Part shown: positions 43,156 through 63,926 of the stretch, piece by piece | How positions within the stretch are numbered: the stretch's first letter is position 1 | How the letters are laid out: every line of letters starts with the position of its first letter | Source: Candidatus Bipolaricaulota bacterium | GTDB taxonomy: Bacteria; Bipolaricaulota; Bipolaricaulia; RBG-16-55-9; DRXL01 | NCBI GenBank assembly: GCA_025060395.1 | Contig: JANXCC010000004.1 | Span: 37,454-101,453, forward strand | DNA length: 64,000 bases | Direction: 5' to 3' | The notes under the pieces: model-generated | Databases searched by the model: none | Seen by the model: only the letters and a program-made list of their open reading frames with translations | What the model was told of the DNA's origin: nothing | Made by a program: the position numbers and the translations under genes

Positions 43156-43165
43156 CAGCCTGTCT

Positions 43166-44368: not shown

Positions 44369-44372
44369 AACC

Positions 44373-44783
44373 ATGGGCTGCGTCTTTTGCAAGATCGTGC
44401 GCGGAGAACTTCCTGCTCATAAGATCTATGAAGATTCGGAGACCCTAGCGTTTCTCGATATCTATCCCATGACCGATGGGCATACGCTTGTCATTCCAAA
44501 GCTGCACGCTGAGCGGCTCGCTGATCTGCCTCCGGAGCTGGCGGGCAAGCTCTTCCAGACGGTCCAGAAGGTCACAGCTCGTCTGACCCAAGCGCTAGGA
44601 GCCCCAGCGTTTAACGTCGGGTTCAACGATGGACGCGCGGCCGGCCAAGCCGTCCCCCATCTGCACTTTCATATCATCCCGCGCTTTCCCGGGGATGGCG
44701 GTGGCTCCCTGCACTCTATCATCCATAAGCCGAACACCCGTCCCTTAGAGGAGATCCATCGTCTGATTGCAGGCTCGTGGTGA
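44373..44783 (+). CDS. HIT-family (HinT-like) nucleotide hydrolase
   Basis: CVFCKI... and the HLHFHIIPR histidine triad. Confidence 0.88.
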   Translation: MGCVFCKIVRGELPAHKIYEDSETLAFLDIYPMTDGHTLVIPKLHAERLADLPPELAGKLFQTVQKVTARLTQALGAPAFNVGFNDGRAAGQAVPHLHFHIIPRFPGDGGGSLHSIIHKPNTRPLEEIHRLIAGSW

Positions 44784-44799
44784 ATTTGTTATAGTAATT

Positions 44800-44816
44800 C
44801 TGTTCACTCTGAACAG
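44800..44816. promoter_or_regulatory. perfect 7-3-7 palindrome CTGTTCA-ctc-TGAACAG (operator or hairpin)
   Basis: Starts 5 nt after a putative promoter (TTGCAG 44767..44772, 17-nt spacer, TATAGT 44790..44795). Followed by a T-rich tract, upstream of prs. Confidence 0.35.
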
Positions 44817-44855
44817 CTATCTTCTCTTTTTGGATGAAAGGGCGGGAGGTTGGAC

Positions 44856-45791: not shown

Positions 45792-45816
45792 GGATCTGCA
45801 AGGGAGGAGATACAGT

Positions 45817-46488
45817 ATGGACTATACGCTTCAGGTGATGCTGCGGGGGAAGAAGCCTAATCCCCGCGAGCTGAGACGCACCGGGTTCATCCCTGGCGTC
45901 CTCTATGGGCACGGCATCCATCACCGTATCATGGTGAGAGCTCGAGATCTCGAGATGTTGCTCTCTCGCATTACCCGCAGCACGCGTATCACCGTGGAAT
46001 TAGACGGCAAGAAGCTCCCCACGTTTATTAAGGAGATCCAGTATGATCCGCTGACGGATCGCGTCATCCATCTCGATCTCTATCATCCTGCCCCAGATAA
46101 GCCAGTCACTCTTGAGGTGCCAGTACGTCTGCGCGGTGAAGCCAGGGGACGTAAGGAAGGCGGCGTGCTTCAGATCCTACGCGACGTCGTCACGGTCCGA
46201 GGGCCCCTAGAGGTCATCCCAGAGATCATCGAGATCGATGTAACTCAGCTGGGGATTGGCCAAGCAATACACGTTAACGACCTCAAACTGGAGGGTGTTC
46301 AACTGCTGACGCCTGGGGAGGTCACGATCGTGGCGGTTGTAGCGCCGCGCAAGGAGGAAGCCGCTGTTGCTGTAGCAGTTCCGGGCGTTGAAGGTGCGGT
46401 GCCGACAACAGCTCCGACCTCGGAGGCAGTCCCACCAACCCCAGCTGCTCCAGCTAAGCCTGAGGAGAAAAAGCCCGAAAAGAAGTAA
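45817..46488 (+). CDS. rplY: 50S ribosomal protein L25/general stress protein Ctc
   Basis: ATG 45817 with GGGAGGAG. RRTGFIPGVLYGHG. Ala/Pro/Lys-rich tail. Confidence 0.9.
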   Translation: MDYTLQVMLRGKKPNPRELRRTGFIPGVLYGHGIHHRIMVRARDLEMLLSRITRSTRITVELDGKKLPTFIKEIQYDPLTDRVIHLDLYHPAPDKPVTLEVPVRLRGEARGRKEGGVLQILRDVVTVRGPLEVIPEIIEIDVTQLGIGQAIHVNDLKLEGVQLLTPGEVTIVAVVAPRKEEAAVAVAVPGVEGAVPTTAPTSEAVPPTPAAPAKPEEKKPEKK

Positions 46489-46493
46489 TCGCT

Positions 46494-47084
46494 GTGAAGG
46501 CCGTCATTGGCTTAGGCAATCCGGGGAGGCAATACGAGCGCACGCGCCATAATATGGGGCGTCTGGCTGTGCGCTCCCTGCTTCAACGCTATACCCAGCT
46601 AGAAACAGTAGAGCATAAGCTGTCGGTTGTCTATCGGATTGGCGAGCTAGCTCTTGTAGTGGAGCCGTTAACCTATATGAATGTAAGCGGGCTTGCCGTG
46701 AAAGAGATCTGCGAGCGCTACTCTGTGACGCCCCAGGAGTGCCTTGTAGTCTACGACGACTATGCGCTTCCGTTTGGGAAGCTGCGGGCGCGCAAGCGCG
46801 GGAGCGCCGGGGGCCATCATGGCATGGAGTCTGTTATCGCTGAGTTGCAAACTGAAGATATTCCGCGGCTGCGCATCGGGATCGGAACAGAGCAGCCCTT
46901 GCCCGATCTGATCGACTACGTCTTGGGCGAGTTCACCCCTGAAGAGCAAGCCAAACTTCCCGAGATTCTCTCGCGCGCCGCCGATGCCATCGAGTGCTTT
47001 CTCCAGACCGATATCGAGACGGTGATGAACAGATTTAACGCCCCTGCCGAGCGGCAAACGAAAGAACAACCCCTAACGCGATAG
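46494..47084 (+). CDS. pth: peptidyl-tRNA hydrolase
   Basis: IGLGNPG..Y..TRHNMG and GSAGGHHGMESV. Confidence 0.92.
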   Translation: MKAVIGLGNPGRQYERTRHNMGRLAVRSLLQRYTQLETVEHKLSVVYRIGELALVVEPLTYMNVSGLAVKEICERYSVTPQECLVVYDDYALPFGKLRARKRGSAGGHHGMESVIAELQTEDIPRLRIGIGTEQPLPDLIDYVLGEFTPEEQAKLPEILSRAADAIECFLQTDIETVMNRFNAPAERQTKEQPLTR

Positions 47085-47643
47085 ACAGATACGCAGCGCT
47101 GGTGACGCGCCACGCCGGCGGCAACGAGAACGTTATCGTATGAGCTGGGATCCAAAATAGAATCAAAGAGAGAAAGACGATCCTAGCCCAACGACGTGTC
47201 TCTGGTCTGCCTAGGACTTCCCAGGGCCAGCAGAATCTCCCAGCGATCATCGCATCAATCCAATAGTGCGTGAACATCATCGAAAACGCATAGCCTCCAA
47301 GGAGATTAATCCACGCGCTCATCCAGAATGGGTTTGCTGGAACCCATAAGTGACTGGACGAGATCGCCTGCACGCCTCCAGCGACAAAGGGGAACGCCGC
47401 TGTAAACCAGAGTCCAAAGATCCCCCAGACGAGAAAGCGTATAGCGAGCTTGTCCGGGATCCAATGACCCGTTGTCAGGCGATGTCTCAAGCACTCCCCA
47501 AATGTCGCTAAAAGGGCGATCTTAGCAAACCCCATCGGATACGGATAAGTCTCCGTTAGTCGAATGAAGAGCTCGTTCTGAAAGACGATGAACGCCGTGA
47601 TCGCCCCCAAATAGAGAGCGCCTACAATGTCAGAGAATCTCAC
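47035..47643 (-). CDS. hypothetical polytopic membrane protein
   Basis: 202 aa, Trp/Phe-rich, about 6 TM. Its 3' end overlaps the pth 3' end by 50 nt. Confidence 0.55.
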   Translation of the reverse strand: MRFSDIVGALYLGAITAFIVFQNELFIRLTETYPYPMGFAKIALLATFGECLRHRLTTGHWIPDKLAIRFLVWGIFGLWFTAAFPFVAGGVQAISSSHLWVPANPFWMSAWINLLGGYAFSMMFTHYWIDAMIAGRFCWPWEVLGRPETRRWARIVFLSLILFWIPAHTITFSLPPAWRVTSAAYLSIALGVVLSFAARQGR

Positions 47644-47668: not shown

Positions 47669-49063
47669 TTATAAGATATATCGGCTAAGGTCTAAGTCTT
47701 CGACAATGCCCTTGAGCTTGGCGTGCACATACGCAGCGTCGATGGTAAAAGTCTTCGGCTCAGGCAGATCGCACGTCTCAAAGGCAATATCTTCCATAAG
47801 TTTCTCCATCACGGTGTGCAAGCGCCGCGCCCCGATATTTTCTAAGCGCTCATTGAGGCGGAACGCGATCTCAGCAATCGCGTCGAGCGCATCATCCGTA
47901 AATTCTAGGCATAGCCCCTCCGTAGCCATCAACGCTTGGTACTGTTTTGTCAGGGCATCTTCAGGCTCCTTGAGGATCCGGCGAAAGTCTTCTTTGCTGA
48001 GGGGTTTAAGCTCAACGCGGATGGGGAGCCGCCCTTGGAGCTCCGGGATGAGATCCGACGGCTTAGACATAGTAAACGCTCCTGCTGCGATAAAGAGAAT
48101 ATTATCGGTGCGCACGTTGCCATAGCGGGTGCGTACCGTTGAGCCCTCCAAGATGGGCAAGAGATCGCGTTGCACCCCCTGCCGCGATACCCCAGGACCG
48201 AAGCGTTCCTCCCGCCCCCCTGCGGCGATCTTGTCAATCTCATCGATAAAAATAATCCCCATCTCTTCAGCACGTTGCACTGCCTGGCGCTTGATCTCAT
48301 CGAGATTGATGAGCTTATCAGCTTCTTCGTTGAAGAGCAGTTCGCGCGCCTCCTTGATCTTCATGCGCTTGACCGTGTAGCCGAAGCCCAAGGGATTGAG
48401 CTTCTCCAACAGCTCGCTCAGATCTACACCCAGCTGCTCCACCCCTTCAGCTGTGAAGAACCCGACTTGTGAGAAGGGGGACTCGCGCTTCACTCGGATC
48501 TCAACGTAGTGCTCTTCAAGGGCTCCGGCTCGCAACTTCTCTCGCAGCTTTTCGCGGGTCTGGCGCCAGGAGTCGCGACGTTCCTCATCCGCACTGCTGG
48601 GCGGCGTTGCCCCTATCAGGGCATCTAAGAGCCGCTCCTCTACGGCGCGCTCTGCTTCGTGCTTCACCTTCTCGATGGCCTCCTGGCGTACCATCTGGAA
48701 GCTTACTTCGACGAGATCCCGAACCATCGACTCGACATCGCGCCCGACATAGCCCACTTCAGTGTACTTTGTCGCTTCTACCTTTAAAAACGGTGCCTTG
48801 ATCAAGCTCGCAAGCCTGCGGGAGATCTCAGTCTTTCCCACCCCCGTAGGGCCGATCATCAAGATGTTCTTGGGAAGGATCTCTTTGCGGATGGGATCAG
48901 TCACGCGCATGCGTCGGATGCGATTTCTGAGAGCAATGGCCACCGCGCGCTTCGCCTCATACTGCCCAATAATATACTTATCGAGCTCGGCCACGATCTC
49001 CCTCGGGGAGAGCGCGCGTTTACTCGTGCGTTCGAACGCGTTGATCTCGACGATGTCAGCCAT
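47669..49063 (-). CDS. hslU: ATP-dependent protease ATPase subunit HslU
   Basis: [26 protein letters not shown], and C-terminal ...DLSRYIL. Confidence 0.95.
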
Positions 49064-49066
49064 CAG

Positions 49067-49615
49067 TCACCACTCAAGGGTTTCGATCGATATATGTTGA
49101 TTAGTATAGATATCCAACGCTCCTGCGATCTCCAGGGCTTTCCGCGCGATCTCCACGATGGGCAGTTGGGTGTTCTGGCGCAGGGCCTTGGCAGCCGCAA
49201 GCGCATAGGTTCCTCCAGACCCCAGCCCGATCATCTCGTCATCGGGCTCGAGAACATCCCCAGCCCCAGAGATCAGCAACAATCCTTCGGCGTTGACGAC
49301 AACCATCATGGCCTCTAAGCGCCGCAGGACTCTGTCGGTGCGCCAGTCTTTAGTGAGCTCGACCGCTGCACGCTTTAGGTTCCCGCCAAATTCTTTTAAT
49401 TTGCTCTCGAAACGCTCAAAGAGCGTGATGGCGTCGGCGGTCGCTCCGGCAAACCCCACCAAGACCTGATCGTTATAGATCTTGCGGATCTTTTTCGCCG
49501 TACTCTTTAGCACGACATTGTTGAGCGTCGCCTGCCCATCAGAAGCGATGACCGCGCGACGCTCCCGCGCTGAGCGAATCGCTAGAATAGTCGTGCCGTG
49601 GATACGCGCTTTCAT
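49067..49615 (-). CDS. hslV: ATP-dependent protease subunit HslV
   Basis: MKARIHG/TTILAIRS...GDGQATL and GSGGTYALAAA. Confidence 0.93.
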   Translation of the reverse strand: MKARIHGTTILAIRSARERRAVIASDGQATLNNVVLKSTAKKIRKIYNDQVLVGFAGATADAITLFERFESKLKEFGGNLKRAAVELTKDWRTDRVLRRLEAMMVVVNAEGLLLISGAGDVLEPDDEMIGLGSGGTYALAAAKALRQNTQLPIVEIARKALEIAGALDIYTNQHISIETLEW

Positions 49616-50635: not shown

Positions 50636-51775
50636 CTATCTGAGCTGCCCAAAGATCTCAAGCAACTGGGCCACCGAGTGGTGAATGCTCATCTGTCGCG
50701 CTCGCTCCTTGGAGTTTCTCCCCAAGAGCTTGCGTCGATGCGGATCGTGCAAGAGTTGTGCTACCGTTTGGGCGAAGATCTGCTCGTCCTCTGGGACGAG
50801 TACCCCGGTCTCCCCATCACAGACGATATCCGCAACGCCTAGAGCGCGCACGGCCACCGCTGGGAGCCCCGCAGCCATCGCTTCCATCAAGACCAAGCCT
50901 TGGGTCTCCGTCTTCGAAGCAAAGACGAACAAGTCCGCTCCACGATAGTAATCAACCAACTCTGCGCGCGGGACGAACCCCACAAAGAGCACCCGATCTC
51001 CAAGCTTCAGGTGTTTGGCATACTCCTCGAAGAGGGGCTGATGGGGCCCCCCTCCCGCAAGCACTAATCGTATAGGCCGTGGATCGTCCCACTGGTCTAG
51101 GATCATGCGAAACGCGCGCAGCAAGAAGTGTAAGTTCTTTTCAATCCCCAGACGCCCTGCGTAGAGCAAGAAGAACTCCTCGGGGGCAAGCCCAAGAACC
51201 TTGCGCGCGTCAATTCTTATGGGGCGCTCGAAGGGCTCTATATCTACCCCAAAGGGCAGCACATAAATGGGCTTTTGGACGCCATAACGAAGAAGCTCTT
51301 CTTTCATGGCTTGGGAAGGGGTGGTAATCGCGTCGCATCGGTTACAGAATGCCGCACTCATGCGCTCAGCCATGCGCCGCGAGGGGCGGATGAGTCTAGG
51401 AAGATAGTGCAGATACTCTGTAAAGAGCGTGTGATACGTATGCACATGAGGAAGGCTATATTTTCGGGCGACGTGGATCGCCAGCAACCCCATCGAGACC
51501 GGCGTATGGCTGTAGACGATGTTGAGCTGAGGAAAGACAGCAAACGCTCGACGATCATAGGGAATGACAATACGGCTATCTTTGTGGAAATAAGCCGTTA
51601 GCGCCGGAAACCGAAAGATTCGGCCGTTCTCGTTTCGTTGAGCGCGCGAGTATGCAGGAGCGAAGATATAGACGTCATGGCCTTGGCGCGTCAGCACACG
51701 ATCTAATTCTTCGAGAACGCTGGTGACACCGTTGATTTGTGGTGTGAACGTATCAGTAAAAATCCCAATCTTCAT
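50636..51775 (-). CDS. GT4-family (GT-B) glycosyltransferase
   Basis: MKIGIFTDTFTPQINGV..., a C-terminal E-x7-E-like region (ETQGLVLMEAMAAGLP). Confidence 0.88.
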   Translation of the reverse strand: MKIGIFTDTFTPQINGVTSVLEELDRVLTRQGHDVYIFAPAYSRAQRNENGRIFRFPALTAYFHKDSRIVIPYDRRAFAVFPQLNIVYSHTPVSMGLLAIHVARKYSLPHVHTYHTLFTEYLHYLPRLIRPSRRMAERMSAAFCNRCDAITTPSQAMKEELLRYGVQKPIYVLPFGVDIEPFERPIRIDARKVLGLAPEEFFLLYAGRLGIEKNLHFLLRAFRMILDQWDDPRPIRLVLAGGGPHQPLFEEYAKHLKLGDRVLFVGFVPRAELVDYYRGADLFVFASKTETQGLVLMEAMAAGLPAVAVRALGVADIVCDGETGVLVPEDEQIFAQTVAQLLHDPHRRKLLGRNSKERARQMSIHHSVAQLLEIFGQLR

Positions 51776-51781
51776 TGGCGG

Positions 51782-52345
51782 TCACCTCTCTTCCTCTGCC
51801 TGAGGAGGGGGAGGAGCTGGAGGTGAGGGTGACTTCCCACAAATCGGACAGAAATTCTCTTCGCTCAGGAAGCCGCACTGGGGACAGGGCTTCCAGCCTA
51901 GCTTCCAACGGGCCTTCTCCATTATCTTGGCTTTCCGCATAAGTTGCTTCACTGTGGCGCGCAGGGTCGGGTCGGCAAGCTCTACAACAAGCTGCTCGAT
52001 CTCGTGCTCTTCTTCAGGGCTCAGCTCAACAGCCTCGAGCGAGAGCACTGGGCGTGGCTTAGGGAAGCTCTCGACGCGAAAGCGAATCTCCTTGACGCGC
52101 TCGGCCCCCAAAGCGCTGTTGAGCTTTCTTCTGAATTCTTCTCGCATTAGGCTGAACTCGTGCTGGACGATGTGATTGGGCACCGCGACGAAGAGCACGC
52201 CCTCATGGACCCAGATCGGTCGCGCTAACCGTGAGATCCTCTGTCCAACAACGCGATCCCACATAAGCGCTGGCTCCTGCTCGCGATATCCTTCGAGCAG
52301 GCCGTACTTGCGTAACACCCTCTCGATCAGTGTTGCTTCGATCAT
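51782..52345 (-). CDS. DUF721 (DciA-like) protein with a C-terminal zinc ribbon
   Basis: The N-terminal ~95 aa fit DUF721 (W..VVG..I...A.P......VLFV.V......E). C-terminal CPQCG...CPICG and a Pro-rich tail. Confidence 0.7.
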   Translation of the reverse strand: MIEATLIERVLRKYGLLEGYREQEPALMWDRVVGQRISRLARPIWVHEGVLFVAVPNHIVQHEFSLMREEFRRKLNSALGAERVKEIRFRVESFPKPRPVLSLEAVELSPEEEHEIEQLVVELADPTLRATVKQLMRKAKIMEKARWKLGWKPCPQCGFLSEENFCPICGKSPSPPAPPPPQAEEER

Positions 52346-52346
52346 C

Positions 52347-53447
52347 TCATCCCTGCTTGAGCTTCCCTTCTCCTTGAGAGGGGAGAGGGATCACTCTTCC
52401 GTTCTCTATGGCGAAGATGCGCCGAGCTACCGCACGCACCTCCGGAAAGAGTTCTTCAGGGTCCATTGCTGTATGAGTGAGAAAGATCTGAATATCTTTA
52501 GGCAGAAGCTGCAAGAGCCGTTGGAGCCGAGGGCGATCCAGCTCCGTGAGCACGTCGTCCAAGATCAAGATAGGATAATCCCCGAAGCGCTGAAAGCCTA
52601 GATCAAGCTGGGCGAGCAAGACCGCGCAGAGCGCAGATTTCTGCTCCCCTTGTGAGCCAAAGCGCCTCAAGTCATGGCCATCGAGCATAAAGCGTAGATC
52701 GTCGCGATGAGGGCCGACTAAGATCATACGACGCCGGATCTCTTCTGGAGTGGCATCCCTGATGAGTTGAGCAAGGGGCACCGAAGGCCCCTCATAGCTG
52801 AGCACTAACTTGCTCTCGCGACCACAGATCGCTTGGTAGCGCTCGGGAAGCATCTTGTTGAGCTCCCGAATATATTCGCGTCGCTGAGCGATGAGCCAAC
52901 TCCCTCGCTCTACGAGCTCCTGGTTGAAGACCTCCAGGACTTCAGGATCAGGGGTCTCCTGATGCAATAGAGCGCTCTTGCGCTGGAGCACCTGCTCATA
53001 CTCGCGCAGCACATATCGATATTCACGCGAAATCTCGGAGATACTGCGGTCGAGAAAGCGCCGGCGCTGCTCAGGACGACCTTTGAGAATCTGTAATTCA
53101 TCTGGGGTAAAGAGCACGACGTGCAGCCGTGCGCTCAACTCGCTCTGGGTCTTCCTTTCGTGATTGAGCTCGATAGTCTTGGCACGCGCTCGTCCGTTGA
53201 GATGAACTCGGATCTCATCACCGTTGACAGAAAGCTCGATAGCGGCTTCTTGCTGCCCGAAGGCAATCACGTCACGCTGGCGCTCCCCCTTAAGCAACCA
53301 GCCTTTAGCAACGTAATAGATCGCTTCGCAGAGATTGCTCTTGCCTGCGGCATTGGGCCCAATGATGAGATTGAGCCCACCATCGGGCATCAGCTCTAGA
53401 GGCGCTAGATTGCGAAAGTTATAGAGCGCGAGACGCTCAACCTTCAT
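52347..53447 (-). CDS. recF: DNA replication/repair protein RecF
   Basis: NFRNL...GPNAAGKSNL Walker A, an SMC-like signature SQGEQK, and ILILDDV. Confidence 0.92.
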   Translation of the reverse strand: MKVERLALYNFRNLAPLELMPDGGLNLIIGPNAAGKSNLCEAIYYVAKGWLLKGERQRDVIAFGQQEAAIELSVNGDEIRVHLNGRARAKTIELNHERKTQSELSARLHVVLFTPDELQILKGRPEQRRRFLDRSISEISREYRYVLREYEQVLQRKSALLHQETPDPEVLEVFNQELVERGSWLIAQRREYIRELNKMLPERYQAICGRESKLVLSYEGPSVPLAQLIRDATPEEIRRRMILVGPHRDDLRFMLDGHDLRRFGSQGEQKSALCAVLLAQLDLGFQRFGDYPILILDDVLTELDRPRLQRLLQLLPKDIQIFLTHTAMDPEELFPEVRAVARRIFAIENGRVIPLPSQGEGKLKQG

Positions 53448-53459
53448 CTCGATGATATT

Positions 53460-54530
53460 TTACTCTGTGCGCTCAGCTAATGCGAGCAGCTGGGCTTTTA
53501 AGTGAGCGATCTCTCCGGCGAAGAGTGGGCTTTCGGCTAAGGCCTTGGCTTTACGATATGCATGCATGATCGTGGTATGATCGCGCCCCCCGAAGCTCAT
53601 CCCCAAGGCTGGGAAGGAGCGCTCGGTCAGTTCACGTGCGAGGTAGATCGCGATTTGACGCGCGCAGGCGATGCGTCGCTCTCGGCTCTCCCCTTCGAGG
53701 TCTTCGACGCTTATCTGATAATATCGCGCGACCTCGCGCTTGATGAGCTCGGGGGTGAGGAACTTGGGGCGCTCTGGCGGAGGGAGCACGTCCTTCAAGG
53801 CATCTTCGGAGAGCTCATGGCCGTTGAGCGAGATCGTAGCGGTCAAGCGCACCAGAGCCCCTTCTAAGGCGCGCACGTTCGAGCGCACCCGCTCCGCGAT
53901 ATACTCAAGTATGCTCGGGGGAAGTTCGAGCTGGAGCTCTTCGGCTTTCGTACGCAAGATCGCCAAGCGTGTCTTGGCATCAGGGGGCTGAATCTCCGCT
54001 ACTAACCCCCAGCCAAACCGTGAGATCAGCCCCTCTGGAAGATGGGGCAAGGCCTCTGGAGAGCGCGTCGAGGTCAAGACGATCTGTTTGCCGCGTTGGT
54101 AGAGATCGTTGAACGTGTGCAAGAGCTCTTCTTGGATAGCGGCTTTCTCACGGAGGAAGTGTACGTCGTCTAATAACAAGATATCTGCTGAGCGATAAGT
54201 CTTTCGAAACTGCGCGGTCTTGCCCTCTTGGAGGGCGCGGTAGAACTCGGTGGCGAAGCGCTCGCAAGTGACATAGAGAATCTTGAGCCAAGGGAAGCGA
54301 CGCGCTGCTTCGTTGCCGATGGCATGGAGAAGATGAGTCTTGCCTAAGCCCGAGGCGCTGTAGATAAACAAGGGATTATAAATGCGTGCGGGATTCTCTG
54401 CGACCGCAAGGGAAGCGGCGTATGCCAATCGGTTGCTCTCGCCACGGACGAATCGCGTGAACGTATACTCTGGCCGTAGCGTCGAAACAACAGCTGGGGG
54501 AGAGTCTCGCAACACAGCTTCTGATCGCAT
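53460..54530 (-). CDS. dnaA: DnaA-family protein consisting only of the AAA+ (III) and DNA-binding (IV) domains
   Basis: ATG 54530. YTFTRFVRGESNRLA, GLGKTHLLHAIGN, LLLDDVHFL, GGRDHTTIMHA. Only ~18 residues precede domain III. Confidence 0.85.
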   Translation of the reverse strand: MRSEAVLRDSPPAVVSTLRPEYTFTRFVRGESNRLAYAASLAVAENPARIYNPLFIYSASGLGKTHLLHAIGNEAARRFPWLKILYVTCERFATEFYRALQEGKTAQFRKTYRSADILLLDDVHFLREKAAIQEELLHTFNDLYQRGKQIVLTSTRSPEALPHLPEGLISRFGWGLVAEIQPPDAKTRLAILRTKAEELQLELPPSILEYIAERVRSNVRALEGALVRLTATISLNGHELSEDALKDVLPPPERPKFLTPELIKREVARYYQISVEDLEGESRERRIACARQIAIYLARELTERSFPALGMSFGGRDHTTIMHAYRKAKALAESPLFAGEIAHLKAQLLALAERTE

Positions 54531-54563
54531 CGTCGCTAACCCCTGGTGCTGGTAGGTACCCTC

Positions 54564-54593
54564 AGCATAGCAGAGATCCCAGGGCGTTGTCAA
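54564..54593 (-). promoter_or_regulatory. dnaA promoter
   Basis: On the minus strand: TTGACA (54593..54588), 18-nt spacer, TATGCT (54569..54564). The track's TTG start is part of the -35 hexamer. Confidence 0.5.
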
Positions 54594-54753
54594 GTCTGGA
54601 TCAAGAGGAACGATGGCGAGAAAACCCTTATTCCAAAAGTATTTTTTGCGTAGCCTCGTCGGGGTGACGCAACGGAGTCAGTGAGGTGATGAACATGACA
54701 CCGGTTTACTCGTTGGGCAGACGCGCCGTAGATTTTGCGGGAAATTGATCACC

Positions 54754-55518
54754 CTAGTTAGCAGACATAGCCCGTGTGAGGGTCACAACTCCCAGGGTAA
54801 TGGCCAACAGAGCGATCAAGGCTCTCAGGAAGCGCACGGGGAGCTTGTGCACGGTAAACGCGGCTAAGGGTGTCGAGATCACGGCGCCAATGAGAATAGG
54901 CACCGCGAGCTGCCAATTGATAGTGCTTACACTGAGCCAATACATGAGAACGCCGACGAGCGAGACGACTCCTTCGGAGAGACTAGTGATGCCCACGGCG
55001 GCCTTGGGGCTCAGCCCAGCGAGGATCTGGCCGGCCGTAATGATCGGACCATAGCCACCTCCGCTCACCCCTTTATTAAAAGAACTGAGCAATCCGATCC
55101 CAACAAGCCGCAGCCAAGAGAATCTCTGACTGCCCGAGGGCGTCACGAGCACGAAGACCCCCAGGGCGAGCACTAGCACGCCAATATAGACTTTGATTAT
55201 CCACGCAGGGAGCTTCACGGCTACAGTAACGGCAATCACTGCTCCCAGCGCGCCGATGAGCGAGAGCACTAGGACGACTCGAGAATCAAGAGAGCTCTTG
55301 CGGAAGCTCACGTTCCGATACGTATGATGAAACCCTGCGGCGACTAAGCCGGTGACGAATTCCGAGAGCAAGACAACAGGGACGATCTGGAGCGGCGTGA
55401 ACCCTAGCAACAATAGCAACGGGGTAAGAGTCGTGCCGTAGCCCATGCCAAGAGAAGAGTCTATATACTCAGCGACGAAAGCGAGCGCCACCAAGATCAA
55501 GAAGAATTCCCAGGCCAC
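54754..55518 (-). CDS. TauE/SafE-family anion exporter
   Basis: 254 aa, 7-8 TM, with the duplicated Gly-rich TM pattern typical of TauE. Confidence 0.8.
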   Translation of the reverse strand: MAWEFFLILVALAFVAEYIDSSLGMGYGTTLTPLLLLLGFTPLQIVPVVLLSEFVTGLVAAGFHHTYRNVSFRKSSLDSRVVLVLSLIGALGAVIAVTVAVKLPAWIIKVYIGVLVLALGVFVLVTPSGSQRFSWLRLVGIGLLSSFNKGVSGGGYGPIITAGQILAGLSPKAAVGITSLSEGVVSLVGVLMYWLSVSTINWQLAVPILIGAVISTPLAAFTVHKLPVRFLRALIALLAITLGVVTLTRAMSAN

Positions 55519-55595
55519 AACGCAGTATACCCCAAAGCGGATCTCCTAAGCAAATTTGCGCCGGGGCTCTCTATGAGCTATGATGGCGTCGTGCT

Positions 55596-55790
55596 ATGAG
55601 CTGGCGCTGGTTGTTGGCTTTGTTGATCGTTAGCAGCTTGCTGTTCTTAGGGGCACGCTATTTTATACTTGCGCGGCTCAAGAACGAAGAATATCATCAG
55701 TGCCCACACTGCAAGAGCTTCTATCGCGGTGCGGTGATGTACTGTCCGCACTGCGGACAAGTCGTCGCTCGGTGGTCCAATAGGCGCTAA
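55596..55790 (+). CDS. small membrane-anchored zinc-ribbon protein
   Basis: 64 aa with one TM, then CPHC...CPHCG. Confidence 0.5.
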   Translation: MSWRWLLALLIVSSLLFLGARYFILARLKNEEYHQCPHCKSFYRGAVMYCPHCGQVVARWSNRR

Positions 55791-55803
55791 GCGTTCCGCT
55801 CGC

Positions 55804-56520
55804 TTACTCGTTCACTTCAAGGACTGTGCTCAGTATGAGCTCCGTTGAGGTCGCCTGGTAAGCCGCTTGGCCTTCTCCTTCGATCTTGCTTGCTCCCGGC
55901 TGCTCGACCGTCACCGTATAGACCCACTCATGTGATCCCCCCTTGGTAAGCCGTAGGAGCATGAACTCCAAGTCCTCATAAGAGCTCAAAGTATAGGGCA
56001 GGATCTCGCGCCAATAGATATATTCGATATCGCGCTTGGCCGTCACTCGCAGTTTGATCTGAATCGTCTCACCGACTTGGAGGGGTCTGTTGGGGAGGAT
56101 GCGCTCGACGATGACCAGCTCGTTCTCTACCCGTTCGACGCGGAACGCCGGAGGCGGCGGCGCGAGCACGGTGATCTTCGTGCTCGCGGTGTCGGCCTGA
56201 CCCGCTTGGTCGTAGACCGTCAGGTGGATGGTGTACTGCCCGGGCTTGTCAAACGTCGGGGTGATTTGTATCCCAGTAAATTCACGACCATCGCTCAGCT
56301 TCCAGTGGATGAGCACGAGCCCACGGTCGTCCTTTGACTGCGACGCATCCAAGATCACGGTCAACGGGGCAACGCCTGTGCGCTCCTTTTGGCAGTTTGG
56401 ACACTCCAAAGCGATCACAGCCATGGGAGGTTGATCGGGCTTCTCCCCAATCGGAATAGGCTGAGTGCACCCTGCCAGCACCACAAGCGCGAATAAGCTT
56501 ATCACCTTTGAAGATCTCAT
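55804..56520 (-). CDS. PKD-domain lipoprotein
   Basis: Lipobox LAGC. PKD-like APLTVILDAS..WKLSDG...GQYTIHLTVYDQAG. Confidence 0.65.
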   Translation of the reverse strand: MRSSKVISLFALVVLAGCTQPIPIGEKPDQPPMAVIALECPNCQKERTGVAPLTVILDASQSKDDRGLVLIHWKLSDGREFTGIQITPTFDKPGQYTIHLTVYDQAGQADTASTKITVLAPPPPAFRVERVENELVIVERILPNRPLQVGETIQIKLRVTAKRDIEYIYWREILPYTLSSYEDLEFMLLRLTKGGSHEWVYTVTVEQPGASKIEGEGQAAYQATSTELILSTVLEVNE

Positions 56521-56613
56521 GTTCTCATCTCCTTAGCTGAGCTGTTACCCTTAGACTACCCTAAAGGGCATTCACCCAATATCCCAGAGCGCAACAAGGA
56601 CTGTGACGTTGAT

Positions 56614-56670
56614 CACCCTACACCCTTGACTTCCCTCTCCCTTGGAGGGGAGAAGGGTTAGGGAGGGGAG
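56614..56670. repeat. second copy of the G/C-tract palindromic element
   Basis: CACCCTACACCC..TTCCCTCTCCC-ttgga-GGGGAGAAGGGTTAGGGAGGGGAG, an imperfect long hairpin. Its right arm resembles that of 3179..3232. Confidence 0.45.
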
Positions 56671-56677
56671 AAGGAGT

Positions 56678-56706
56678 TTGACAGTTCTCTCTTGATGAGC
56701 TACACT
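56678..56706 (+). promoter_or_regulatory. promoter of the HU-like gene
   Basis: TTGACA 56678..56683, 17-nt spacer, TACACT 56701..56706. Confidence 0.55.
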
Positions 56707-56731
56707 AAACCAAACCCGCGGGGAGGGGCCT

Positions 56732-57064
56732 ATGCGCAAGATCGACTTAGTCGCTCAAGTAGCGCAGCGGACAGGAATGCCTAAGGAGGCCATTTTGAAG
56801 TCATTAAACGCCGCGCTTGCTGTGATCTCGGAGACGATAGCCCAGGGGGAAGAGGTGCGGTTAAAGGGATTTGGGACCTTTGTGGTACGACCGCGTCGCC
56901 CTACGCGGCGCAGCAATCTGTGGACTCGTCAGGTCTTTGCTATCCCAAGCAAGCCGATACCGCGCTTTGTCCCAGGAAAGGCTCTCAAGCAGCGTGTGCT
57001 CAGCAATCTCACCGTAGTAGAACTGCCAAGTGGACGTCTAGCTATCCGTCCAAAGTCTGGCTAG
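56732..57064 (+). CDS. HU/IHF-family DNA-binding protein with a C-terminal extension
   Basis: MRKIDLVAQVAQRTGMPK...VRLKGFGTFVVR...FVPGKALKQRV. Confidence 0.85.
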   Translation: MRKIDLVAQVAQRTGMPKEAILKSLNAALAVISETIAQGEEVRLKGFGTFVVRPRRPTRRSNLWTRQVFAIPSKPIPRFVPGKALKQRVLSNLTVVELPSGRLAIRPKSG

Positions 57065-58509
57065 AGGCGCTTCAAGAATTGCTCCGCTTCGTCTTTGTAA
57101 GAATGGAACGGATCGGCCAGGACGAGGGTGCGCTTAGGCTCGACGAAGACCCCGTCCCACTCGATCATATATTCGCCGACGGTTCGACCCCGTAAGCCGC
57201 GCACGATCAGAGCCCGCCCATAAGCCCTAGTGTCAGAAGGAGGCTCCTCTATAGCTCGTTCGATCTGGGAATTGCTTACGAGCCGCCGTCGCGACTCGAG
57301 CGCATAGTAGAGCCCTTGCTCCGGGTCTATATTGTGATATTCTAAATCTAGGCTATGTAAGGCATCGTCTTGCCAGGTGAGCCCTTCGGCGTCCTTGAAA
57401 AGCTGGATCATGGAGAATTTAGCGACCCAATCGAGGCGGTCAGCCAGCTCCATAGGATCGCGCTCGAGGGCGTCGAGGGTCTCTTCCCATTCGCGCAGGA
57501 CTTCATCGGTCTCCGGATCACGTCCGGCAAAGTGCCGCTGGGCGGCCTGCAGATAGAGGCGTTGCAGGTCGATGGCAGAGATCGTCGAACCATCGTCACG
57601 TCGGACGATCCAGGTGTGTGTCGGATCGCGAGAGATCTCCTTGAGGGCGCGCAATGGCGCGGCCAACTCCACCCCGGAGGGAACGGCTTGTTCTTCTAGC
57701 AGATCCAAGACCAAGATCGTTGTGCCCACCTTGAGAAACGTTGCGTATTCTGAGGGATTGGCCTCGCCAAAGAGCAGGTGGAGTCGTGGGCTGCGGGAGA
57801 GCTCGTACATCTGATCCCACTTGGGATTAATCAGGGCGCGGCTGAAGCGCACCCGCCCGGAGACCGTATGCAGAATATGATCGGCACGTTGAGAGAGCTG
57901 GAAGTCCACGGTTGGATCGGGCTCGACCCCGTAGGCTGAGTCGACAAAGACCGTATCGGCGATATGGCGGGACTTGGTCTGCCACGTGGTAGTCAAGCGA
58001 TGGCCACCGACCCGTCCCGCTCCAGCAAAGATCTGGCGTGTCACTAAGAAGGGGACTAATTTCTCGAGCGCATGCCGCCAGGAGAGCGACTCGGGATCGA
58101 CAGAATAATTCTCATGGCAGCCAAACGTATGGCCCGCAAAGTGATCGACGCTATTGTTATAGAAGCTGACTCGATCGTGGAGGCGGAGATCGCGCAATAC
58201 TTTCAAAATGAGTCGCTGTCCGGCTCGCTCGTAGGCGATCAAGTCGCGTAGCGATCGGCACTCCGGCGTAGCATACTCAAGGTGCGAGCCAACGGCATCG
58301 ATATAGAGCCGTCCCCCGTTGATTAAGAATCCTCCGGCCTCAGCAGGCTCAAAGTACATATCACGAGTATGCAAGTCGAGGAGACCCCAGCGTCTGTTGC
58401 GAAAGACCTCGTCCTTGACCCGCTCCACGATCTCTTCATAGGGCCCAAGTCGGGGATCGCGCACCAGACAGCCAAACTCCGTCTCCAGCCCGACAACGCG
58501 ATGATCCAT
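57061..58509 (-). CDS. pafA: Pup/UBact ligase PafA homolog
   Basis: 482 aa. GLETEFG...LEYATPEC...GCHENY. Lacks the insertion seen in the 501-aa paralog. It is the last gene of the proteasome operon. Confidence 0.8.
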   Translation of the reverse strand: MDHRVVGLETEFGCLVRDPRLGPYEEIVERVKDEVFRNRRWGLLDLHTRDMYFEPAEAGGFLINGGRLYIDAVGSHLEYATPECRSLRDLIAYERAGQRLILKVLRDLRLHDRVSFYNNSVDHFAGHTFGCHENYSVDPESLSWRHALEKLVPFLVTRQIFAGAGRVGGHRLTTTWQTKSRHIADTVFVDSAYGVEPDPTVDFQLSQRADHILHTVSGRVRFSRALINPKWDQMYELSRSPRLHLLFGEANPSEYATFLKVGTTILVLDLLEEQAVPSGVELAAPLRALKEISRDPTHTWIVRRDDGSTISAIDLQRLYLQAAQRHFAGRDPETDEVLREWEETLDALERDPMELADRLDWVAKFSMIQLFKDAEGLTWQDDALHSLDLEYHNIDPEQGLYYALESRRRLVSNSQIERAIEEPPSDTRAYGRALIVRGLRGRTVGEYMIEWDGVFVEPKRTLVLADPFHSYKDEAEQFLKRL

Positions 58510-58546
58510 CGTTCACGCTCCTGTTCATAACATTAGCTGATTGGGA

Positions 58547-59281
58547 TCATCTTGGCAAGAACGGCTTCAGTTCCTGGTCACTCAAGAAGCGGAAGCGGCG
58601 CTCACGCCGCGATACCCGCTCCAGGAAGGCCGCTTCGACCATGCCCGTCTTGAGCGCTTCGGAAAGCACAGCGCGCCATTCAAGCGCGGAGGAAGCTTCG
58701 TGGCGTCCTACCGCCCAGGCCTCGAGCGCCTTCTCCAAGGCCGCGTCTCGTTTGGGCACCTTCTTAGTGAACTCCACGAGCACGCGCTCCATCATCTCGC
58801 GAGCGCGCTCCGTCCCCGCCGCCACTCCAAAGCGATAGGTCAGCGAAAACTCCCCGTCATAGTTGAGCAGATAAAACAGATCGCTGTCGGGAGTATCGCC
58901 CAGCTGTGCAAAGAGCCCGCGCACGACTAAGGGTAATCGTAATGGATCGCTGAAGCTGCGCTTCATGGCTGGGCTGAGCGCCACGCCCACGACCCGTTGG
59001 ATCGAGACGTCTTGAGGGCTACGGGCAAACCCTTCCGCGTGAGCAAAGTCAACAGCGAGCTGGCGAATCGTTTCTAAGTCTGATTGATTGCCTAAGCCCG
59101 CAAATGCCAATCTATCGTAGATCTCGAAGATCTTCTGCTGGTGAGCGCGACGCACCGTCACTAACAAGATCCCTTCGTGACACGAGAGGCCCACGATGGG
59201 GCTCCCCTCGCGTAAGCGATCCTCAACGTAATCGGCCTTCTGACGGAGCGTTTGCTGCCAATCGTAGGGGGTGAATGCCAT
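58547..59281 (-). CDS. prcA: 20S proteasome alpha subunit (bacterial type)
   Basis: KIFEIYDRLAFAGLGNQSDLETIR pattern and no N-terminal Thr. Starts at ATG 59281, or at GTG 59287 overlapping the prcB stop. Confidence 0.85.
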   Translation of the reverse strand: MAFTPYDWQQTLRQKADYVEDRLREGSPIVGLSCHEGILLVTVRRAHQQKIFEIYDRLAFAGLGNQSDLETIRQLAVDFAHAEGFARSPQDVSIQRVVGVALSPAMKRSFSDPLRLPLVVRGLFAQLGDTPDSDLFYLLNYDGEFSLTYRFGVAAGTERAREMMERVLVEFTKKVPKRDAALEKALEAWAVGRHEASSALEWRAVLSEALKTGMVEAAFLERVSRRERRFRFLSDQELKPFLPR

Positions 59282-59283
59282 AG

Positions 59284-60078
59284 TCACTCTTTCAGCAAAG
59301 TCTTTTGGAGGGAGCGTAAGAGCTCTTCGGGGACGTCGGCGACGCCTTCAGCCGTTACGGTCTTAGCGAGGGGCAAGTGGTGATGAATCCCACCGGTTGC
59401 TGTGTCCAGAGACGCCGCGATCTCAAGCAAGAGGAGCGTCTCACGCAGTGCTGCTTCCAGCGTCATAGTGTGAAACGGGCCCTTAGTGCGCACGATATAC
59501 TCGAAGGCACCCCGAATCCGTTCTGCGCCAGAGCCAGCGGCACCGAACTCCCGGCTCTCAAAGCGCGCGCCCATCACATCGTAGAAGAATATACGCCCTT
59601 CATGCTTTTCCCTATCGAAGGCGCTGACGATGGGCAAGAACCCGCCGATCCCCTGAAGAGCCCCGGGGAGAGACCGACTGAGCACGCGCGAGACCTCAGA
59701 GAGTTTGCCCTCCAAACTGAGCTCTTGGAGCTGGCTCCGGGCATAGTACTTAAAAGAATGCTGCAAGAAGCGCACGGCCTCAAACGCTGCGGCGTAAGAC
59801 CCAGCAATAGCGATGAGCGTCTCATCATCGAGCTTTAAGATCTTTTCGGCCTCTTCATAGAAGATCGCGTTGCCCGCTGTAGCACGGCGGTCAGCGACGT
59901 TTAAGACGCCCTTATCGAACTTCACGGCGATGACTGTCGTGCCATGGGCCCAGACCCCGTTGGCACACTGCCCGTGGGTTCTATCTTCGCCGGCTGCAAG
60001 CTGGCGAGGGCGAATATCCCAGACGGAGTCTGGCATCCCATAGGCCTCAAGGAGCTTGGCGAAGTCGCCGTAGCTCAT
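59284..60078 (-). CDS. prcB: 20S proteasome beta subunit with a 46-aa propeptide
   Basis: ATG 60078. The propeptide ends ...VWAHG/TTVIAVKF. Asp17 and Lys33 are in register with Thr1. Confidence 0.9.
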   Translation of the reverse strand: MSYGDFAKLLEAYGMPDSVWDIRPRQLAAGEDRTHGQCANGVWAHGTTVIAVKFDKGVLNVADRRATAGNAIFYEEAEKILKLDDETLIAIAGSYAAAFEAVRFLQHSFKYYARSQLQELSLEGKLSEVSRVLSRSLPGALQGIGGFLPIVSAFDREKHEGRIFFYDVMGARFESREFGAAGSGAERIRGAFEYIVRTKGPFHTMTLEAALRETLLLLEIAASLDTATGGIHHHLPLAKTVTAEGVADVPEELLRSLQKTLLKE

Positions 60079-60082
60079 CGAC

Positions 60083-60253
60083 TCACTCTCCGCTGCGTTG
60101 GCGATAACGCTGCGCTTGCCGCGGGTCGACGCGGCGCATCCGCTCCAAGAGCCTCTCGGTGTCGGGCTTGGGCACATTGGGAGTGCGCGGGCCGTCGTCC
60201 GTGGGCTTGGTCAACGGATCCTGTGGTATGGGTCTTGTGATGCGTTCCGGCAT
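60083..60253 (-). CDS. UBact/Pup-family prokaryotic ubiquitin-like modifier (56 aa)
   Basis: Hand translation gives MPERITRPIPQDPLTKPTDDGPRTPNVPKPDTERLLERMRRVDPRQAQRYRQRSGE-stop. GGAGGA lies 6 nt upstream. Positioned between dop and prcB and absent from the ORF track. Confidence 0.75.
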   Translation of the reverse strand: MPERITRPIPQDPLTKPTDDGPRTPNVPKPDTERLLERMRRVDPRQAQRYRQRSGE

Positions 60254-60256
60254 CGG

Positions 60257-61762
60257 TTATCCTCCTTTCGTCTCAAGAGTCTGCTGTATGATACCCAAAA
60301 GCTCGCGTGGCGTCGAGACCCCCTTCGCCCAGTGAGGGAGCATTGCGACCCGACCGTCGACGAGCGAGCGCAGATCGATCGTGAAGTCTTGGCTGTTGTG
60401 CGAAAGCGTTATTCGCCCCCAGTTGAGCGCCCGGATGGCCGAAGAGAACTTTCTCACGCACAGCCCACGGATGTACGCACGTGTATCGTGTGGGGGGTCA
60501 TGGAGGGCGCGGACGATCTCGTCGTCAGAGACGAGTCGGCGCAGCATCCCTTGATTCTGTAACTCATAGAAGAGACCGCGAGTTGGATCGAGAGCGTGGT
60601 ACTCTAAGTCTAGACTTTGAACGATCTCATCGCGCCAGCTCAGCTTTTCAGTTTCAATAAAAGTCTGGAGCAATTGGCGCTTAGCGACCCAGTCGAGCCG
60701 GTCGGCACAGCGCATCGGATCGGCTTCGAGATCGTCCAGCACAGATTCCCATTCTTTCAGGAGCCAATCGGTCTCAGCGTCGCGATGGCCGAAGAGCTCT
60801 TGGGCGGCTTTCAGATATGCCCGCTGGACCTCAAGGGCTGAGAGAGTGCCTTCTTCTTCAAGCTCGACGAGCCATCTATAAGCTTGATCACGCGAGAGCT
60901 CTTTAAGCGTTTTAATGGGGTCTTTGAGGGTCCCAGGTGGGTCGTAGCCCGCTTCCAATAACCCCACAACCAGGGCTGTTGTACCGACCTTGAGGGCGAG
61001 AGCGTACTCGCTGAGGTTCGCATCCCCGCAGATGACATGCAGTCTTCTATAGAGTCTTTCATCGGCGTGCGGCTCGTCGCGACTATTTATGAGCGGGCGG
61101 CGATCCAGCGTGTCCACGCTGCACAACTCTGTAAAAAAATCAGCGCGCTGGGAGAGCTGAAAGTCGACCCAACTCTCCTCGCCACCGACGCGACCTGCTC
61201 CCGTAAAGAGAATGCGCGTTACCAGAAACGGAATCAGCCCGGCAATCAGCTTCTCGAAGGGGAGTGCCCGTGAGACTAAATAGTTCTCATGGCAGCCGAA
61301 GCTCATGCCGTGATAGTCGATATTGTTTTTAAAGATCGAGACGGAGCGTCTTGTCTTCTGAGCATAGGCTTGGGCTGCCGCCCAGACGATGCGTTCCCCT
61401 GCTTTGTCATGGGCGACAAGCTCCCGAAGTGACCGACACTCGGGGGTACTGTATTCGGGATGGCCGTGATCGTGATAAAAGCGTGCGCCGTTGGCTAAGA
61501 CTTTATCAGCGTGATCTTCAGAAGCACTTAAGTGTTTACGCGAGGGCTTTTCGTAGGCGTCGTCTTTGGGATTAGTTGTTAAAAACGGGGCACGCCAGCC
61601 ACGGGCATCTCGGAGAGGGTCTTCGTCGCGATAGTCCCAGGGCTGGGCAGAAGGCCCAGAATAGCTTTGCACAACGGCGCGGACCTCATCGACGAGATCC
61701 GTGACGTCCACACCATCTATGAGAATACCGTATTCAGTCTCGATGCCAAGCAAGCGATCCAT
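60257..61762 (-). CDS. dop: depupylase/deamidase Dop homolog
   Basis: ATG 61762, 501 aa. GIETEYG...PEYSTPEC...GCHENY. A ~50-residue insertion relative to the pafA paralog sits at the position of the Dop loop. Confidence 0.8.
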   Translation of the reverse strand: MDRLLGIETEYGILIDGVDVTDLVDEVRAVVQSYSGPSAQPWDYRDEDPLRDARGWRAPFLTTNPKDDAYEKPSRKHLSASEDHADKVLANGARFYHDHGHPEYSTPECRSLRELVAHDKAGERIVWAAAQAYAQKTRRSVSIFKNNIDYHGMSFGCHENYLVSRALPFEKLIAGLIPFLVTRILFTGAGRVGGEESWVDFQLSQRADFFTELCSVDTLDRRPLINSRDEPHADERLYRRLHVICGDANLSEYALALKVGTTALVVGLLEAGYDPPGTLKDPIKTLKELSRDQAYRWLVELEEEGTLSALEVQRAYLKAAQELFGHRDAETDWLLKEWESVLDDLEADPMRCADRLDWVAKRQLLQTFIETEKLSWRDEIVQSLDLEYHALDPTRGLFYELQNQGMLRRLVSDDEIVRALHDPPHDTRAYIRGLCVRKFSSAIRALNWGRITLSHNSQDFTIDLRSLVDGRVAMLPHWAKGVSTPRELLGIIQQTLETKGG

Positions 61763-61768
61763 ACAACT

Positions 61769-61777
61769 ATTATGCCA
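61769..61777 (-). promoter_or_regulatory. extended -10 element (TGgCATAAT) giving a leaderless dop transcript
   Basis: The minus strand reads TGGCATAAT-agttgt-ATG, so only 6 nt separate the hexamer from the ATG. Confidence 0.45.
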
Positions 61778-61832
61778 GAAAACCGTTCGAAGTTCGAGTC
61801 TTGCTCTCAGCTTCCGGTGCAGGCAGGAATGG

Positions 61833-61861
61833 TTGACGAGCGGAGCAAGAGCCGTTATAAT
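61833..61861 (+). promoter_or_regulatory. tRNA operon promoter
   Basis: TTGACG 61833..61838, 17-nt spacer, TATAAT 61856..61861, 10 nt before tRNA-Asp. Confidence 0.6.
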
Positions 61862-61871
61862 GTGCCTATGC

Positions 61872-61948
61872 GGGGGTGTGGTGTAGAGGCCTAACACGCT
61901 GCCCTGTCAAGGCAGAGATCGCGGGTTCAAATCCCGTCATCCCCGCCA
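61872..61948 (+). tRNA. tRNA-Asp (GTC), CCA encoded
   Basis: Cloverleaf folded by hand: acceptor GGGGGTG/CATCCCC, D stem GTGT/ACAC, anticodon stem CTGCC/GGCAG with loop CTGTCAA, T arm GCGGG-TTCAAAT-CCCGT, G73, CCA. Confidence 0.93.
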
Positions 61949-62016
61949 GGCCGCCTGGACCGTTCATCTTCGACAGCCGGAGGCTGGCGAAGGCATACAA
62001 GTTCAGACGAAGTCTG

Positions 62017-62089
62017 GCCGAGGTAGCTCAGGTGGTAGAGCACAGGACTGAAAATCCTGGTGTCGGCGGTTCGAGTCCGCCCCTCGGCA
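62017..62089 (+). tRNA. tRNA-Phe (GAA), no encoded CCA
   Basis: Acceptor GCCGAGG/CCTCGGC, D stem GCTC/GAGC, anticodon stem CAGGA/TCCTG with loop CTGAAAA, T arm GGCGG-TTCGAGT-CCGCC, A73. Confidence 0.93.
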
Positions 62090-62172
62090 TTCTTTTCTCA
62101 TCTACTTGCGCTCCCACGCTCTCTTCCGTTAAACTGTGAGCACAAGACTCTATCTTCTAAAGGAGACATAAC

Positions 62173-62553
62173 ATGGCCTATCCCAAAGAGTATCGCTACA
62201 CCAAAGAACACGAATGGGTCAAGCTCGAAAACGGCAAAGCTCGCATCGGGATCACCGACCATGCCCAGCATCAGTTGGGCGATATCGTCTACGTCGAGTT
62301 GCCCAAGATCGGCACTAAGGTCAAACAAATGCAAGAGTTCGCCACCGTCGAGTCCGTCAAGGCCATCTCTCCGATTTATGCCCCTCTCAGTGGTGAGGTC
62401 ATCGACGTCAATAAAGAGCTCGAAACGAAACCCGAATTGATCAATCAATCCCCCCATGAGCAAGGCTGGATCGCTATCATCGCCCCAAGCGATCTCACAG
62501 AGCTCGACTCTCTGCTTACAGCTGAACAATACGAGAGACATATAGGGGCTTGA
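62173..62553 (+). CDS. gcvH: glycine cleavage system protein H
   Basis: YTKEHEWV...VESVKA with the lipoyl-Lys. AAAGGAG precedes the ATG. Confidence 0.95.
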   Translation: MAYPKEYRYTKEHEWVKLENGKARIGITDHAQHQLGDIVYVELPKIGTKVKQMQEFATVESVKAISPIYAPLSGEVIDVNKELETKPELINQSPHEQGWIAIIAPSDLTELDSLLTAEQYERHIGA

Positions 62554-62579
62554 GCCCTTGACCCTCAAAGGAGGTATGA

Positions 62580-63923: not shown

Positions 63924-63926
63924 GCT

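Follow-up and report, generated by a model that had tools for sequence, protein, structure and literature searches.

A DnaA protein without domains I and II in Candidatus Bipolaricaulota: a conserved truncation and a candidate core initiator

Domain I of DnaA is, in the two model systems, where the helicase is recruited (DnaB in Escherichia coli, via DnaD in Bacillus subtilis) and where most of the regulators dock. The stretch of DNA analysed here (64,000 nucleotides, referred to as the window) comes from an uncultured Candidatus Bipolaricaulota bacterium and carries a dnaA gene that ends, at its N-terminal side, almost where domain III begins. This raises the question of whether the gene is a misread copy of a normal dnaA, a paralog that works beside a full-length DnaA, or a minimal but genuine initiator of chromosome replication. 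A preliminary description of the locus had left the choice between minimal initiator and paralog open. The evidence given below favours the minimal initiator, while for this particular genome the paralog reading still stands as an unlikely one.

The short dnaA gene (53460..54530, reverse strand) encodes a protein of 356 aa made up of an AAA+ domain III and a helix-turn-helix (HTH) domain IV only. The longest open reading frame at this position (53460..54593, reverse strand) starts from a TTG codon and, as had been described, gives 377 aa instead of the 356 aa read from ATG 54530. On the 377-aa form, the Pfam domains Bac_DnaA and Bac_DnaA_C cover residues 39-199 and 281-348, respectively. The short protein matches the models of domain III (PF00308, E=2e-62) and domain IV (PF08299, E=3e-27), and a Pfam scan of the protein gave no match to PF11638 (DnaA_N). 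Domain I and the domain II linker are missing, with 18 residues preceding domain III from ATG 54530, a length that had been noted before; residues 1-14 are disordered in the AF2 model (pLDDT 88.6). The equivalog model TIGR00362 scores the protein at 431.2 bits against a cutoff of 343.9, and the match spans profile positions 98-434 of 437 only.

Domains III and IV had been called complete on the basis of three motifs, GLGKTHLL (at 61), LLLDDVHFL (118) and GGRDHTTIMHA (314), and all three are present, together with SRF (R171) and SNVRALEGAL. Throughout the DnaA alignment, Walker A, Walker B, the arginine finger and RDHTT show no variation, nor does R291 in domain IV. The arginine finger, Arg171, corresponds to R285 of E. 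coli, and Tyr22, which aligns to E. coli His136, is an invariant Tyr. The short DnaA aligns to residues 98-445 of B. subtilis DnaA (8BTG) with 46-47% identity and to the A. aeolicus domain III-IV crystal construct 1L8Q, and its domain IV region matches 1J1V and 3PVP. The AF2 model matches 8BTG, 1L8Q and 2HCB, and its fold compares with 8BV3 and 2Z4R at TM 0.93-0.94. The Pfam matches, the span of the TIGR00362 match and the 8BTG alignment agree on a DnaA without domains I and II, and alignment against DnaA families, a check proposed in the preliminary description, confirms the truncation. All testable features that define DnaA are present except the N-terminal domains. Judged from its sequence, the protein keeps an intact core for ATP binding and oligomerisation, and its domain for the recognition of DnaA boxes is intact as well. 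Since these proteins pass the TIGR00362 equivalog model, their truncation is invisible in current databases and hidden from annotation.

A frameshift, a mis-assembly or a mis-called start could conceal a normal N-terminus. MAG assemblies may contain frameshifts, and one such case was met among 157 dnaA loci of other phyla that served as the background set. In this set, the N-terminus that could precede the NPLF motif has a median length of 162 aa (5th percentile 140), and the sole background locus below 90 aa, L070, has a visible frameshift. L070 (6500-8400) is the dnaA of an actinobacterial nanopore MAG; its frameshift falls inside domain II and puts domain I (frame +1) out of register with domain III (frame 0), a picture of a short DnaA that is an artefact. 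Before the NPLF motif, the short-form loci have room for just 41-75 aa. The gene of the window was found unchanged in an independent Logan assembly of run SRR25904938, the identical protein is recorded at NCBI as MCS7197959.1 / MDW8030606.1, and the window sequence is also contained in MAG GCA_033581635.1 (contig JAVQSW010000001.1, about 351,432-415,431). A domain I HMM built from 48 full-length relatives detected long-form controls at 1e-22 to 1e-34 and found nothing (E > 1) in any reading frame of the window or of L086-L088, the short-form loci to which the scan was confined (L169-L178 lay outside it). A frameshift or assembly error that restores domain I, which had been named as a possible refutation, is thus contradicted by both the identical independent assembly and the empty six-frame scan. 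An in-frame stop lies 28 codons above TTG 54593.

The start region itself also argues against a concealed extension. A sigma-70-type promoter, TTGACA-18-(TG)TATGCT (54564..54593, reverse strand; 10/12 matches, TG extended), was identified about 30 nt upstream of ATG 54530, and TTG 54593 lies inside its -35 hexamer, as had been proposed. Because this TTG is part of the promoter, ATG 54530 is the true start. Six short-form loci that have diverged widely all carry a CTTGACA...TATGCT element ahead of the start codon, and this conservation means that transcription starts within the would-be N-terminal extension. The same architecture is also found in 72 of the best 120 protein clusters, drawn from NCBI, JGI, ENA and Logan. 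An artefact is therefore very improbable; the truncation of DnaA is real and conserved.

The gene upstream of dnaA encodes a TauE/SafE-family membrane protein (54754..55518, reverse strand), which bounds the locus and is unrelated to replication. It ends 160 nt above TTG 54593 and 223 nt above ATG 54530; the neighbour distance of 160 nt given earlier is correct, measured above the TTG, but tauE ends there and does not start there. The spacer between the two genes (54531..54753) holds the promoter and 5' UTR, and no DnaA boxes, AT-rich unwinding element or domain I remnant were found in it. The earlier statements that this region has no DnaA-box cluster or unwinding element and no room for a split domain I are both borne out, the latter by the domain I HMM, which finds none in any frame of the window.

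The cluster dnaA-recF-DUF721 that had been recognized from the letters alone was verified by Pfam and TIGR matches. The gene recF (52347..53447, reverse strand; TIGR00611, 296 bits) starts 12 nt after the dnaA stop, which leaves no space for an origin between the two genes. It is followed by dciA (DUF721; 51782..52345, reverse strand), with matches to PF05258 (E=1.5e-16) and RecR_ZnF, and by a GT4 glycosyltransferase gene (50636..51775, reverse strand), the last tightly spaced member of an apparent dnaA-recF-dciA-GT4 operon. Synteny of GT4 with the dnaA operon is kept in L169, a 68%-identical relative. The conserved promoter is dnaA's own, and recF and dciA are probably transcribed from it as well. 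No dnaN, gyrB or dnaB was found in Pfam scans of 20 larger ORFs of the window or among the Pfam labels for 52580-64000 (L179), so that the reported absence of a dnaN or gyrB neighbour holds across these ORFs and the labels of the right-hand 11 kb.

Several other features of the surroundings were recorded. A block of genes encoding TyrRS, HIT, Prs, L25 and Pth lies downstream of the dnaA operon in the window (43127-47643) and is inverted, whereas in L169 (5051-9023) it lies upstream of dnaA and is co-oriented, which points to rearrangement around the dnaA locus. In L169 (9024-9600), pth and dnaA are separated by an insertion of two small ORFs (49 and 81 aa) with a repeat of the pth 3' end (GAxACCGTGATGAATCGCTTTAA) at its flanks; it resembles a small inserted cassette. 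A UBact / Pup-ligase (two copies) / proteasome cluster is located just upstream of the dnaA region of the window (57061-61897), and a pair encoding a proteasome-family protein and an AAA_2 ATPase (HslVU-like) just downstream of it (47669-49615). At 36331-38945 on the reverse strand, two long ORFs in different frames, 36331-37773 and 37383-38945 (the latter DUF5693), share about 390 nt, which could reflect a frameshift or a spurious ORF.

How widely the short form is spread was assessed by a search of 5.8 billion proteins, from which the best 120 clusters were examined. Short proteins of 343-371 aa, without PF11638 and with 52-100% identity to the window DnaA, make up 72 of these 120 clusters and have a common N-terminus layout. 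The other 48 are full-length (431-465 aa, with PF11638, 50-58% identity). The named members belong to Candidatus Bipolaricaulota / Acetothermia, and the DciA of the window has 70% identity with an 'Acetithermum autotrophicum' protein. One short-form clade (P0079) is located on the 3.2-Mb JGI contig Ga0315338_1000001, whose LigA is about 56% identical to those of both Latescibacteria and Bipolaricaulota.

Neighbour-joining trees with 200 bootstraps and 18 outgroup DnaAs place the short and long forms together, monophyletic against the outgroups in 200/200 bootstraps. All short forms were monophyletic in 83/200 bootstraps, and in 137/200 when the P0071 trio was left out. Given these figures, one or two losses of the DnaA N-terminus are possible on the basis of the trees. 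The first BLOSUM neighbour-joining trees had the long forms nested inside the short forms, which would need at least three losses; bootstrapping gave no support for this arrangement (7/200). The truncation is ancient, conserved and lineage-wide.

The full-length relatives provide a measure of what a normal locus looks like in this phylum. The long-form loci L003 and L004 (P0057, 441 aa) have a dnaA-oriC-dciA arrangement and no dnaN neighbour. Their dnaA-dciA spacer of 255 bp contains 9-11 DnaA boxes, three of them perfect TTATCCACA, and is identified by these boxes as the origin. The short-form loci are arranged dnaA-recF-dciA. As full-length dnaA genes of the same phylum also lack dnaN, the missing dnaN is a phylum trait and uninformative, and dnaA-(recF)-dciA is the canonical locus in Bipolaricaulota.

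The window was searched for an origin with TTATCCACA at up to two mismatches, the TTWTGCACA variant, repeated 7-mers, direct and inverted repeats, and GC skew. Eight one-mismatch TTATCCACA sites were found (6.4 expected), none of them clustered, and an unbiased scan for clusters of repeated 7-mers returned none anywhere in the window. No oriC-like cluster was detected in positions 1-64000 or in the 10 kb beyond the right edge (74 kb in total), and GC skew is flat across the window. The GC-skew and DnaA-box analysis suggested in the preliminary description therefore yields a flat skew and no cluster within 74 kb. Five other short-form loci likewise have no DnaA-box or other repeat cluster near dnaA. 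In the window and its 68%-identical relative (L169/L170), recF comes 12-13 nt after dnaA, and the loci hold no box or repeat cluster.

Two further short forms were found with box clusters near the gene. In L171 (P0060, 349 aa, GCA_029907235.1), dnaA and recF are separated by 320 bp in which 10 exact TTWTGCACA boxes occur (0.03 expected). Each strand carries five of them, and an AT-rich stretch comes after. In L177 (P0077, 353 aa, GCA_964443275.1), a cluster of seven exact TTWTCCACA boxes (against 0.27 expected) is located 1.4 kb upstream of the short dnaA; three boxes are followed by four inverted ones, and the flank is AT-rich. The origin of the P0060 clade (L171 11051-11370) is built of TTWTGCACA boxes and not of TTWTCCACA as in L003 11326-11582, and the recognition helix of the P0060 DnaA has Arg in place of His (DHSTVIRAY vs DHTTIMHAY). 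The box variant and the helix change may represent co-variation, to judge from these sequences.

The box clusters beside short dnaA genes in L171 and L177 argue that the short DnaA is a real chromosomal initiator and not a regulatory paralog. Its place at the canonical dnaA-recF-dciA position and its joint clade with the long forms favour orthology, as far as sequence comparison goes. The overall explanation that fits best, and that we consider likely, is an orthologous core initiator DnaA in organisms that recruit their helicase otherwise and have moved the origin away from dnaA. The gene of the window would be an ortholog, the chromosomal dnaA of a Bipolaricaulota lineage in whose evolution domains I and II were lost; the remaining core initiator would consist of a short disordered tail followed by domain III (AAA+) and domain IV (DNA-binding). 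The short DnaA would bind DnaA boxes via domain IV and oligomerise on ATP via domain III, and these activities would suffice for origin opening, as they do for E. coli DnaA without domains I-II in vitro. In the genome of the window, the origin would no longer lie beside dnaA.

Helicase recruitment is the step for which domain I is needed in model bacteria, so organisms with this DnaA would have to load the helicase otherwise. E. coli DnaA without domains I-II is as able as the wild type to open oriC in vitro, yet it does not support replication and is non-viable (PMC5448010). Domain I is the stable DnaB-binding site, which is the reason for the failure of the truncated E. coli DnaA in replication (PMC5448010, PMC6127211). 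His136 at the start of domain III is a second, weak DnaB contact whose aromatic character is conserved (PMC6127211). The DciA domain resembles the DnaA N-terminus (bioRxiv 10.1101/2022.01.24.477630), and DciA binds DnaB (bioRxiv 10.1101/2022.01.24.477630; PMC8216460). Two candidates for the helicase-recruiting role of domain I can thus be proposed in the window: the aromatic residue that domain III retains at its start, Tyr22, and the product of dciA, two genes downstream, with its domain I-like KH fold. Helicase recruitment is probably left to domain III and the operon-encoded DciA.

The product of dciA has a DUF721/DciA domain with a KH-like fold. Its AF2 model (pLDDT 79) best matches D. radiodurans DciA (7YKM; TM 0.83, 39% identity), then the V. 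cholerae DciA-DnaB structure 8A3V and then B. subtilis DnaA domain I (4TPS; probability 1.0). The Bipolaricaulota DciA also carries a C-terminal Cys4 zinc ribbon with invariant C154, C157, C166 and C169. This form of DciA is also encoded in L169 (12185-12709), L171 (12455-13006) and L003 (11582-12085), and the DciA architecture, Cys4 ribbon included, is identical in long-form and short-form lineages. There is hence no direct sign of compensation in DciA. A gain of the zinc ribbon to make up for the lost domain I was considered and rejected, as long-form lineages have the same ribbon.

The main rival of the core-initiator reading is that the short DnaA is a paralog, a domain III-IV regulator, transcription factor or titrating factor that works beside a full-length DnaA and an oriC elsewhere in the genome. 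No origin lies within 74 kb of the gene, and the inspected sequence is about 74 kb of a 489-kb contig in an incomplete MAG. In box VII, the position of E. coli R281 is Gly or Gln in 21 of the 22 clusters of the window clade (P0001-P0022; G167 in the window), whereas Arg is kept in the 51 other short and 48 long forms (99 sequences), and the window protein alone has STR (T155) in place of an otherwise invariant SDR. The R281A change makes E. coli DnaA assemble less stably on oriC and bind less DnaB, yet DUE unwinding is retained (PMC6127211). The lack of a nearby origin, the loss of the R281 equivalent and the STR change keep the paralog reading alive for the window clade. It is opposed by the canonical dnaA-recF-dciA position of the gene, by the L171 and L177 short forms at DnaA-box clusters, and by the TIGR00362 score above the equivalog cutoff with the Hda model far below its own. 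In two NCBI submission batches that hold both kinds of MAG, the short and long DnaA accessions are more than 10,000 apart, a gap that exceeds the proteome expected for one such genome and points to different assemblies. None of the 48 long-form clusters listed shares its longest contig with a short form. Taken together, the paralog reading is judged improbable, though by no means negligible.

Another way to retain domain I would be a split gene, with domain I encoded as a separate small protein that acts in trans with the short DnaA. The sequence in view is part of a genome, and stand-alone DnaA_N proteins do exist in metagenomes, one example being P0189; this protein, however, is encoded among hypothetical genes that resemble a mobile element. 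The six-frame translations of the window and L086-L088 yielded no domain I-like ORF. A Bipolaricaulota domain I profile was searched against 1.84 billion representative proteins, and the top matches examined were fragments of full-length DnaA or unrelated architectures, none of them tied to a short-form genome. A split gene is accordingly doubtful, and more so than a paralog. PF11638 was seen in unusual metagenome architectures (P0187, P0165 and P0189), namely a 1149-aa protein with nine matched stretches, a 946-aa protein, and a 167-aa stand-alone protein (L176 1472-1975) located among hypothetical genes in a mobile-element-like setting.

Returning to the core-initiator reading, chances are about even that a deep and diverse lineage, which takes in much of Bipolaricaulota/Acetothermia and their relatives, including the organism of the 3.2-Mb contig, replicates its chromosome with a DnaA devoid of domains I and II and without a second dnaA. 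No report of a naturally domain I-less DnaA, or of DnaA in Bipolaricaulota/Acetothermum, was found in the literature searched. If the reading is true, helicase recruitment in DciA-type bacteria needs no DnaA N-terminus and proceeds via domain III and/or the domain I-like KH module of DciA, and domain I is an accessory and not a universal part of the bacterial initiator. A natural, conserved initiator without domain I would show that evolution can separate origin opening from helicase recruitment. How DciA-dependent helicase loading is targeted to the origin has been poorly understood so far, and such an initiator would provide a minimal system for its study; an in vitro reconstitution could start from few parts, namely the 320-bp L171 spacer, the short DnaA, DnaB and DciA.

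Among known systems, the canonical DnaA of E. coli, B. subtilis and A. aeolicus shares with the short DnaA the AAA+ Walker A/B, box VII and sensor motifs and the RDHTT signature of domain IV. Clusters of TTATCCACA-type boxes adjoin dnaA in relatives of the short DnaA, as they do for the canonical protein. The canonical domain I (about 75-110 aa, KH-like) and the domain II linker are absent from the short DnaA; domain I of canonical DnaA binds DnaB, DnaD, DiaA, HobA and SirA and is a dimerisation site. The natural short DnaA equals the engineered 1L8Q construct, or E. coli DnaA deprived of domains I-II, a deletion that E. coli does not survive. Hda/HdaA is likewise a shortened AAA+ protein of the DnaA family without domain I, but it has no domain IV and carries an N-terminal clamp-binding motif, whereas domain IV is complete in the short DnaA. 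Identity with Hda is ruled out by this domain and by a TIGR03420 score of 108 bits against a cutoff of 194.8.

The DciA proteins of D. radiodurans (7YKM) and V. cholerae (8A3V) have the DUF721 fold in common with the DciA of the window, whereas its Cys4 zinc ribbon sets it apart, zinc not being mentioned in the DciA diversity survey. The nearest comparison is with the long-form DnaA of the same phylum (P0057), which is 53-58% identical to the window DnaA in domains III-IV. The long-form Bipolaricaulota loci and the window both have dciA downstream and no dnaN neighbour. The long forms keep PF11638 domain I and an oriC in the dnaA-dciA spacer, whereas the window DnaA has no domain I and is followed by recF after 12 nt.
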